NCBI GenBank assembly: GCA_963844715.1
Contig: CAWJPJ010000007.1
Span: 1,216,001 to 1,280,000, forward strand
Reading direction: 5' to 3'
Source of the DNA: an uncultured Phycisphaerales bacterium
GTDB lineage: Bacteria; Planctomycetota; Phycisphaerae; Tepidisphaerales; Tepidisphaeraceae
DNA length: 64,000 bases
The number at the start of each line of letters is the position of its first letter. Positions within the stretch are counted from its first letter, which is position 1. Shown one piece after another: positions 21,001 to 24,000 of the stretch. The position numbers were made by a program.

Positions 21001-24000
21001 CGGACGCCCTATACGACTTGGGGCGGGTATGGCGGGTTGTCGTTTCGCGGGACGCGGGACTGGCACGAGCCGCGGCTGCTTTTTTCGGATGGATCGACCG
21101 CGACCCGCCCGGTGGGGAACAAGGCGCTGTGGTGCGATCTTTCGGGGTATCTCGACGGCGGGGTGCGCCCGACCGGCGGGATCGCGATGTTCGATCATCC
21201 CTCGAATCCGCGCCATCCGACGCCCTGGTACGGCGGCACCGAGGTGAGCATTTTCTTCAACGCGGCGTTTTTATTTAATGAGCCGATGGAGATCGCCGGC
21301 GGGGAGCCGCTGAATTTCAGGTATCGCGTGCTGGTGCATGACGGGATGGGGGAGAGGGAATATTTGCAGAAGGAATACGACCATTATCTGGCCGGGGACA
21401 AATCGGCGACCTAAAATCCGTTTTAAGGGGGTTCAGCGATGGCTGAACTGAACATCCTGGAAGGCAAAGAGCGACTCAAATCGCTGAAGGGGATGCTCCA
21501 TCAATTCAGCGCGCCGGCGGCGGAGGCGCTGATCAAGCGGGAAGGCGATGGCATTCGCTGTTTCGCCTGCGGGCATCGGTGTCTGGTCCAGCCGGGGCGG
21601 GACGGGGTTTGCCGGGTGCGGTTCAACGATGGCGGCACGCTGCGGGTGCCGTTTGGGTACGTGGGGGTATTGGCTTGCGACCCGATTGAGAAGAAGCCAT
21701 TCTTTCATTGTCTGCCGGGGAGCGATGCGCTGACGTTTGGGATGCTGGGGTGCGATTTTCATTGCGGGTATTGCCAGAACTGGGTGACGAGCCAGATGCT
21801 GCGCGATCCGGACGCCGCGGCGGCGCCTCGCCAGACGCGGCCGGAGCAACTCGTGGATTATGCGATTGAGCATCGATCCCCCGTGATCGCCTCGAGCTAT
21901 AACGAGCCGCTGATCACCAGCGAATGGGCGGTGGCGGTGTTCAAGGAGGGGAAGAGGCGGGGGCTGAAGTGTGCGTATATTTCCAACGGCAATGGGACGC
22001 CGCAAGTGCTGGATTTTATCAGGCCCTGGGTGGATGCGTACAAAGTCGATCTGAAGACGTTCAATTCCAAAAACTACCGGCAGCTTGGCGGGGTGATGGA
22101 GAATGTCGTCGAGACGATTCGGATGCTGAAGGAACGGAAATTCTGGGTGGAGATCGTGACGCTCGTCGTTCCCGGGTTCAGCGACGATCCCGACGATCTG
22201 AAACGCATGGCGGAATTCCTGGCATCCGTCGATCCGCTGATGCCCTGGCATGTGACGGCGTTTCATCCGGATTACAAAATGACCGACGGTTATCGCCAGA
22301 CAACGGCGGAAGATCTCATGAAGATCGTCGACTACGGCGTGCAGGCGGGGCTCAAATATATCTATCCCGGTAATCTGCCGGGGCAGGTGGGGGAGTGGGA
22401 GAACACGCGATGCCATCATTGCGGGGCGACGGTGATCAAGCGATGGGGATTTTTGGTGAAGGAAAATCGAGTGAAACCAGACGGGTCCTGCCCGGCGTGC
22501 GGGAAGGGGATTCCCGGGATTTGGGGGAAATCGAGCGGGCACGGGGACGGGCGGGTGCGGGCGATTGTGTGACGGACTATTTGCGGCTGCGCAGGCGGTC
22601 GATGGTGACGCCGATGCCTGTGAGCAGGACGAACAGGAGGAAGAGGGCGACAAGTGAGAAGAAGACCAGGATGAGGATCGACCAGCCGAAGCCGGCTTTG
22701 GCGGATTTGATCAGAAGGACGAAGACTCCGCAGTTCAACGCAACGGCGACGCCGGCGGCAAGGAGGGCGGCGATCCAGCCGGTGAATTGGCGAGGGATAG
22801 TCACGTAGCCGGAGATGTTGACGAGGGTCAATGGGGAATCGGTTCGCAGCAGACGTTGGATAAAGCGGCATCCGATGAAGGCGACTGTGCCGGATACGAT
22901 GGCTCCGACGAGGGCCGAGAAGTCAGGGGATTGCCAGGCGCGGGAAATGGCCAGATAGGCGACGGCCAGCCAGGCGAGCGTCCAGATGGCAAGTGTGCCC
23001 AGACAGCCGTGGCTTCCGGCGGAATATTGATTGGGCAGATCGGTGGGGAAATCGACATTGTCACGCCGGGTGACGGTGACGTGCTGGGGATCGGGCGGCG
23101 GTTCGGGGTCCGGGGGCATGGGGGGACCGTCTAACTTCGCTTGCGCGATAATTTTGCCGCGGAATGTTTTGAGCCTGATGGCGGCTTTCGCGGCGCTCGA
23201 CAGTTTTTCCTCGGTGTTTCGTTCGTCAGCGAAATGTTCAACGCTCGTTCGAGCTGCGCAAGCTGCGAGTAATAATCGCGGTTGTCGATTTCATTGATCC
23301 ACCATTCTGCCGCCGGCGGATTGGATACTTTATCATTCTACGCGGCATCGACGACGTCCGCCGTGGATTGCGCGGGCGGGACGGGTTCGTTGTGTTCGCG
23401 GAGGGAATCGATGTATGAAGCGACGGCGTCCCTGATATTGACGCGGATTTCGTCGGGGGTGTCGCCGCTGGTCGTGCAGCCGGGGAGGTCGGGCACGTAG
23501 GCAGAATAACTGCCGTCGTCAGCGCATTCGACGATATAGACATATTCCGTGGCGGACTTCATCGGATCACTACTACTTCTTCCGTCCGTTCTTGGCTGGT
23601 TTTATTCCACGCTGAACTCCCGTGACCAGGAGCAGATCGAGAGTGACGAACGAATCATCCGCCATTCCAATAGAAATGAGCCGTCCGGAGGCCGACTGGC
23701 CTAACACTTCAGGGTGAAACACGTCATATTTCCGCCCGTCAGCGGTCAGGATCCTAAAAGGTTTGAAGGGTTTTTCTTCCCTTAGGCGTTGAATCTCCTG
23801 GATCGTCATACAGGTCAAGTATACCAAAATCCGTGCGATAGGAGTGGGAGGTCCGTGTCGTCGGATCTTGACGCACCGGGGGGGAAATCTGCCCCTCACC
23901 CTGTCCCATCCTGCGGAAACTAGCGGAGGCATGGGGAGAGGGGATAAAAGCGGTTAGCTGCACCCCATCGAATTCCCGCAATTCAGGCATTTGTAGCAAG

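Follow-up and report, generated by a model that had tools for sequence, protein, structure and literature searches.

Does a multicopy family of small Sm-type proteins do the work of Hfq in a bacterial lineage where Hfq is not found, and why do copies of it stand inside core operons? The question is raised by the gene for one such protein, P0001, in a 64,000-nucleotide stretch (the window) of the genome of an uncultured Phycisphaerales bacterium of the family Tepidisphaeraceae.

The P0001 gene and its neighbours

The features around the gene are collected in Table 1. A 119-aa reading of P0001 from an upstream ATG was discarded in favour of the start at 23809, because the starts of relatives and the position of the -10 box agree there; relatives are mostly 75-83 aa long and align from the same start. 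A search of the window for a full -35/-10 pair found none. The piece of coding sequence further upstream, which from its sequence we take to belong to a class II ribonucleotide reductase gene, had no Pfam match.

Table 1. Positions of the P0001 gene and neighbouring features in the window
Feature	Position	Strand	Remarks
Sm-type protein gene, P0001, 78 aa	23573..23809	-	predicted helix and Sm-type beta-barrel; basic C-terminal tail
-10-type hexamer, probable leaderless promoter	23818..23823	-	8 nt before ATG of P0001
Short HicB-like gene, 74 aa	23338..23562	-	PF15919 E 5.4e-12; 10 nt downstream of P0001 gene
Conserved basic coding segment past HicB, apparently frameshifted here	23137..23262	-	matches P0114 tail
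REP-like palindromic repeat	23893..23942	.	between upstream gene and P0001 promoter
Last piece of a presumed class II ribonucleotide reductase gene, upstream of P0001	23954..24361	-	frameshifted in assembly

The survey of this genome had overlooked both the HicB-like gene directly downstream and the -10 box upstream. No HicA partner for the HicB-like gene was seen. The basic segment beyond it, a single copy in the window genome, shares 76% identity across 42 aa with the tail of a relative, P0114, whose family domain continues into this segment with HicB absent. Because P0114 joins both segments without HicB, the latter was gained or lost independently, and to judge from this alignment the window's HicB-like gene is probably an independent insertion. 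P0114 and the neighbours at other loci led us to reject HicB as a dedicated partner of the Sm-type gene. The REP-like palindrome (hairpin z -1.97) was likewise rejected as the carrier of the family: it lies near one of the seven family copies, and its 107 pattern matches are spread genome-wide and are not family-specific.

A conserved coding family without a name

A six-frame search of the window genome agreed with the survey's six clear copies and one weak one (phmmer E<=6.6e-7; weak copy E 0.0012), the paralogues being 33-49% identical to P0001. The sizes reported for them hold for P0001, but not for the copy on contig C6, which reads on to 138 aa. Its usual basic tail lies in another frame, and from the reading frames this copy probably carries a one-base indel, in an assembly with many frameshifts. 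The family is a conserved coding gene under purifying selection: among 10 close relatives, pN was 0.06-0.24 and pS 0.56-0.96, with dN/dS of about 0.14 or lower where not saturated.

As had been claimed, P0001 belongs to no Pfam family, and none of 70 diverse members matched one at better than E 0.005. The seven paralogues had no NCBIfam match, PHROG gave one match only (E 0.42) and the Atlas held unnamed clusters only. A description of the family was not found in the literature covered, which lies outside subscription papers and supplements. The family is large, a profile finding 3997 representatives at E<=1e-3 (3236 in the survey), and tandem-domain members also exist as reported, 24 with two domains and 2 with three among 148 listed proteins; longer fusions were not found in a search insensitive enough to miss known three-domain proteins. 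Only P14, F15, P17, G25, V30, P33 and V62 are near-invariant; these positions form no catalytic-type set and, on conservation, look structural.

An Sm-like barrel tied with several folds

AlphaFold returned the helix and barrel previously described (pLDDT 88.4 for P0001), made up of one helix plus six strand segments if the bent beta2 is counted as two. Against 48,161 chains nothing reached Z 8. Hfq was indeed the best natural match, its chains (Z 6.0-6.3) coming after two designed barrels; SspB (6.0), CgeA (5.9), YaeO/Rof (5.6) and RimP (5.5) all lie with Hfq inside the tie margin of 1 that the comparison tool sets. The dominance of Hfq in the Foldseek list holds from rank 11, but ranks 1-10 are taken by YgdR/DUF903-type small lipoproteins and a cytochrome, and nothing was found at E<=0.001 for this model. 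The model of a natural two-domain member (pLDDT 90) placed CgeA (Z 6.7) and SspB (6.5) above Hfq (6.4); its pTM of 0.54 means that no confident packing of one domain on the other is predicted, and no solved tandem chain matched both domains. Two profiles searched against the sequences of solved structures gave nothing below E 0.1, and the viral structure library gave no match at E<=0.001. Because Hfq, SspB, CgeA, Rof and RimP are structurally tied, the models identify the fold as an Sm-like barrel without singling out Hfq.

Is the family a substitute for Hfq?

As a substitute for Hfq, the protein would have to assemble into hexamers of like or mixed subunits, joined as rings by beta4-beta5' pairing, and to serve as a small-RNA chaperone where Hfq is lacking. 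The top rank of Hfq among natural matches to the single domain fits this idea, as does the confirmed absence of canonical Hfq, PF17209 matching 0 of 61 Tepidisphaeraceae genomes and LSM having no match in the window genome. In the available part of bioRxiv 10.1101/140376, Sm rings are built by the beta4-3/10-beta5 unit and the Hfq rim patch comprises R16, R17 and R19. The P0001 model has short loops and would leave that unit free, and the multi-domain fusions and tandem gene pairs fit the idea as well. The uridine pocket is given as Q8, F42, K56 and H57 in the available text of PMC5379935. In a register set by hand from DSSP strands and E. coli Hfq, not by superposition, the rim equivalents of R16 and R17 are basic in 39 and 61 of 113 members, but that of R19 in none, and the pocket is absent: the K56 position is K in 3 of the 113 and the H57 position H in 2, with leucine mostly found there, an aromatic stands in the F42 loop of 12, and Q occurs at positions 2-4 in 30. 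The family profile aligned with Hfq (one or nine sequences) over 11-18 columns, at a pairwise HHalign probability of 0.2-0.9%. The tandem model, in which SspB and CgeA equal or outrank Hfq and domain packing is not confident, also counts against this reading.

We then consider distribution, with counts for 61 Tepidisphaeraceae genomes that include the window genome (G000) and an unpublished one (G002). The family is widespread there, as the survey had it, being present in 50 of the 61. Its copy number is not the 1-16 per genome given earlier: matches run from 0 to 19 in these genomes, and with a wider profile, which found the family in 35 of 41, up to 21. Within a single genus, three genomes differ, with 4, 7 and 11 matches. 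Four near-complete Tepidisphaeraceae genomes (G017, G033, G049 and G053) had no family match, and the family looks dispensable. Relatives come from Tepidisphaeraceae and Phycisphaerales, to which Atlas clusters add Verrucomicrobiota. Among other Planctomycetota, where about 1 genome in 80 had been reported to carry the family, it occurred in at least 8 of 150 with up to 15 matches, a floor since scoring was limited to 37 candidates per genome. PF17209 matched 8 of these 150 genomes, in 5 of them above the cut-off; both genes occur together in one genome, and 135 contain neither. A complementary distribution of the family and Hfq was rejected on these figures, Hfq being rare whether or not the family is present.

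The missing pocket residues, a profile match below 1%, the rarity of Hfq across the phylum and the absence of the family from 11 of the 61 genomes speak against the role that the survey had implied, and we hold an Hfq substitute to be quite improbable. The same degree of doubt attaches to a bolder version, in which the paralogues would form homo- or hetero-oligomeric Sm rings paralleling eukaryotic Sm/Lsm, with a new mode of reading RNA (leucine-lined pore, conserved loop arginine, basic tails), as the post-transcriptional hub of an Hfq-less lineage whose operon-embedded subfamilies tune ribosomal-protein, RNA polymerase and pyruvate dehydrogenase mRNAs.

Sequence profiles and the Rof and SspB alternatives

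A profile of 70 diverse family members matched the single Rof sequence of E. coli in 49 columns (pairwise E 0.0026). This match outscored all 100 shuffles and 199 of the 200 real fragments used as controls. Against an alignment of 6 Rof sequences, HHalign gave 40% with 70 members and 53% with 114 (pairwise E between 1.3e-4 and 3e-4). None of 100 column shuffles scored as high, and an Hfq-to-Rof control (22.5%) was no better; these scores, like those for Hfq, are pairwise and would lack significance in a library-wide search. By profile comparison, then, the family is nearer Rof (40-53%, 49 columns) than Hfq (<1%, 13-14 columns in the direct comparison).

The protein might accordingly resemble Rof in function, as a monomeric Sm-fold antagonist that binds Rho and thereby helps acquired or poorly translated genes to be transcribed; the co-variation with accessory gene load described below would follow from this. 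The profile match and the Z score of YaeO are consistent with such a role, and Rho was found in 4 of 5 genomes tested; it was not found in the fifth, G152, which has 15 family matches. The narrower, closer alignment A2 scored only 1.3% against Rof, and PF07073 matched neither the window genome nor any of the 70 members in the Pfam scan. Rof contacts Rho through Y13, D14, E17 and E50 among others, according to the available text of PMC11018626. In a hand-set register, the equivalents of these residues fit in 1 (Y or H at the Y13 position), 60, 3 and 2 of 113 members, and the last two positions are basic in 55 of the 113. We regard a Rof-like antagonist as unlikely.

A third possibility is a peptide-binding adaptor of the SspB type, delivering or shielding proteins. 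SspB aligns over 67-68 residues with the scores already given for the single and tandem models, one family copy follows mcsB, and exposed hydrophobic motifs are conserved in the family. Identity is 3-8%, however, SspB chains are 105-121 residues long with long insertions, and no protease neighbour recurs at the loci examined, which leaves this reading very improbable.

Most stand-alone copies have a -10 box close to the start codon

The copies were said to sit singly inside core operons. This holds for a minority: 41 of 113 copies are operon-coupled, but 70 stand alone, and tandem pairs occur at 9 of 104 loci. Upstream alignments revealed a -10-type hexamer directly before the start codon, and in 40 of 67 copies TAnnnT preceded the start by 5-10 nt (mode 6 nt). 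When coupling was defined as a distance of no more than 25 nt from a gene upstream on the same strand (one split copy dropped), a larger set, G002 included, had the box in 52 of 70 stand-alone copies versus 5 of 41 operon-coupled ones, and in 2 of 2 at locus ends. The background was 262 of 2286 first-in-unit ATG genes of the window genome, a figure that comes from our own gene caller and is diluted by errors in start assignment.

A leaderless mRNA has this layout, with a -10 box directly ahead of the start codon. With the box 5-10 nt from the start, the stand-alone copies are probably leaderless, to judge from this spacing. The box is a newly recognised feature of the family.

Genomic sites of the copies

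The copy between rplK and rplA on contig C1 was confirmed. Among the 30 best-scoring rplK loci (G000 and G002 included), the slot holds a family gene in 14, other genes in 4 and nothing in 12, one spurious relaxed-threshold call being counted among the empty ones. Different genomes have copies at the same sites, rpoB-rpoC, pdhA-pdhB, cysK, thiG and rpoD, frequently in tandem pairs. Several subfamilies have become fixed in operons, and there the -10 box is missing. At these sites rplA, rpoC, pdhA, cysK, thiG, rpoD, mcsB and nusG were checked by Pfam; the remaining gene names are presumed from their sequences.

In a tree of 65 rows, the five rplK-rplA copies form one clade (97/82), and the clade of the window's copy (99/100 support, 14 rows) spans 12 sites. 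Close relatives in the family often have core genes or toxin-antitoxin genes as neighbours. Within one genus, one site is occupied in 3 of 3 genomes, and each of three others (rplK, pdhA-pdhB and the site of the window's copy) in 2; as several sites are common within the genus, movement is slow. Gene order differs between genera in any case, which inflates the impression of many sites. No mechanism of mobility was found: flank alignments of the copies contained no shared terminal repeat or RNA element, and a search of phages, plasmids and viral contigs with P0001 gave no match. Rfam on 12 loci returned one unrelated tRNA only.

Co-variation with toxin-antitoxin genes

Across the 61 genomes, the number of family matches correlated with that of HicB (rho 0.55; 0.52 after genome size) and of DUF433 (0.47; 0.40 after genome size), versus 0.28 with size alone, all for kin genomes that are not independent; leaving out G002 gave 0.54 for HicB and 0.46 for DUF433. 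The coefficient of variation (CV) of copy number was 1.05 with zeros included, compared with 0.83 for HicB and 0.78 for DUF433. According to the available text of PMC2701414, high copy-number variation and solo genes typify toxin-antitoxin (TA)-like families, and a high CV serves as a criterion for finding them.

Of 42 family loci, 6 had TA genes recognised by Pfam no further than about 1.5 kb away, against none of the 40 control loci (p 0.026). The comparison is biased towards enrichment because the control loci, for which all 51 ORFs were sent, were not centred on intergenic gaps; for family loci 47 of 99 short ORFs were sent, housekeeping pieces and doubtful calls having been excluded by eye, and two were added. 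Further TA neighbours occur at loci L158, L178 and L182. Such neighbours include HicA/HicB, PIN, VapB, RHH, MNT-HEPN and DUF4258.

These observations could mean that the family itself is a solo toxin, antitoxin or anti-phage component behaving like type II TA genes. Besides the CV and the range of neighbours, the position of the window gene, where hicA would be expected, is in keeping with this. Against it, no fixed partner emerged across about 110 copies, the TA neighbours at the 6 loci being of five kinds; a true HicA sits between the family gene and hicB at L023 and L178; P0114 represents the same site without HicB; and catalytic residues are not conserved. A TA function of its own is distinctly unlikely.

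Discussion

As things stand, what is established is the fold and the genomic behaviour only: a coding gene with an Sm-like fold, variable in copy number, with its own -10 box when alone, fixed in operons at some sites and co-varying with TA genes. The reading that we prefer, at a probability of about 50%, is an accessory family spread as a self-expressing cassette, whose Sm-fold protein attaches loosely to RNA or single-stranded nucleic acid by a basic face and tail and modulates transcripts during stress. A leaderless mini-cassette would insert into intergenic hot spots also used by TA genes. Copies landing inside an operon would lose their promoter and hitchhike on the operon's expression, and after such hot-spot insertion some may have been fixed and domesticated at core operons. 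Genomic hitchhiking, in which unrelated genes are carried in conserved operons, is described in the available text of PMC2588523. Operon placement is better explained by hot-spot insertion with fixation of some copies than by an Hfq role.

More tentatively, the protein might use a basic helix/loop face (positions 7, 13 and 43) and the tail for low-specificity binding to RNA or single-stranded nucleic acid and, lacking the uridine pocket of Hfq, might serve as a modulator at the post-transcriptional level or in stress. The basic tail ascribed to the family as a whole, taken as a net charge of >=+3 over the final 14 residues, occurs in only 62 of 113 members and in 92 of 127 of the closer alignment A2; net charge <=0 in 49 of 113 members and the lack of a basic tail in 45 of 113 weaken the case for a shared nucleic-acid-binding role.

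The family is real and unnamed; on the preferred reading it belongs with the Sm-like small beta-barrels as kin to Rof and Hfq and a member of neither. It comprises about 4000 sequence clusters without a family name, a distinct branch beside Hfq, Rof, SspB and WYL among Sm-like barrels. At 78 residues, P0001 is a tractable target in the phylum Planctomycetota. A leaderless mini-cassette repeatedly fixed in rplK-rplA, rpoB-rpoC and pdhA-pdhB would make a clear case of core operons domesticating accessory genes, and Rho binding or RNA-binding rings, if true, would extend either mechanism to Planctomycetota.

Comparison with known systems

With Hfq the family shares the N-terminal helix and five-stranded Sm barrel (Z 6.0-6.3, rmsd 2.2-2.9, over 58-61 residues), a proline before beta1 (101 of 113 members), a glycine in the beta1-beta2 turn (111 of 113) and, in part, the basic patch at the helix end. 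It differs in an H-P-E 3/10 insertion in beta2, in its 0-21 matches per genome and in being encoded mostly by stand-alone, probably leaderless genes. Rof/YaeO (PF07073) has a similar fold (Z 5.6), is the best sequence-profile match found and is likewise a small single-domain gene, also carried on plasmids; its acidic Rho-contact positions, however, are basic or neutral in the family, whose invariant P-F-x-P-F and H-P-E motifs are missing from the six aligned Rof sequences. SspB, CgeA, the RimP C-domain, WYL, YgdR/DUF903 and other small beta-barrels have tied scores (Z 4.7-6.7 over both models), but SspB, CgeA, the RimP C-domain, WYL and YgdR/DUF903 have no sequence-level match to the family and differ from it in size, partners and gene context. 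Solo TA-associated small genes (short HicB, DUF433, Uma2-type) are similarly small and variable in copy number, with co-varying counts, common insertion neighbourhoods and tandem paralogues. In contrast to them, the family has neither a known toxin or antitoxin fold nor a fixed partner, and several of its subfamilies are fixed in core operons across genera.

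Sequences flanking the window copy

Beyond the HicB-like gene that follows the window's family member, a basic coding segment shares 76% identity over 42 aa with the tail of P0114, a relative that runs from the family domain into its tail without HicB. The segment seems to be frameshifted in the window and has one copy in the source genome, G000. Protein text identical to the window's IS5-like transposase pieces was found at L004, near 6020-6400.

The gene that we take to encode a class II ribonucleotide reductase contains an intein-like stretch. Because this gene and the dCTP deaminase-like gene upstream of it are both split, indel errors in the G000 assembly are suggested.

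Features in the window and at locus L063
Feature	Position	Strand	Remark
Basic coding segment	window 23137-23290	-	after HicB; like P0114 tail
REP-like palindrome	window 23893-23942		107 pattern matches in G000
IS5-like transposase	window 19581-20462		in pieces
Class II ribonucleotide reductase gene (presumed)	window 23954-28590	-	several frameshifted pieces
75-aa gene	L063:1719-1946	-	directly after family member; resembles more distant barrel of same type

Across the G000 genome, the -10-type hexamer TAnnnT peaks 6-8 nt ahead of ATG starts (244 versus ~75 expected), an excess from which leaderless genes appear to be common in this lineage.

Variation among family members and their sites

At L003:1264-3004, a Phd/PIN pair and an ADP-ribosylglycohydrolase are inserted; the equivalent site in two genomes of the same genus (L156 and L160) holds the family gene only. 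The L063 product, seemingly a barrel of the family's type but more distantly related, scored under the family profile threshold and had no Pfam match. In P0174, another relative, the segment ahead of the family domain presumably resembles DUF4926, and the sequence may reflect either a fusion or a frameshift. Copies at L169:1477-1590, L079:3001-3244 and L170:658-1731, one of them fused to cysK, are truncated or frameshifted, through either decay or assembly errors.

In many genomes (loci L129-L155), a membrane protein of ~100 aa occupies nusG's place directly upstream of rplK, and in L139, L143, L148, L149 and L154 rplK is not followed by rplA.

Two Planctomycetota genomes encode a tandem Hfq-like pair (L066:1393-1965 and L067:1152-1737), in which a divergent Hfq with an FKHAI motif precedes another Sm-like gene, whose product is coiled at its N-terminus.
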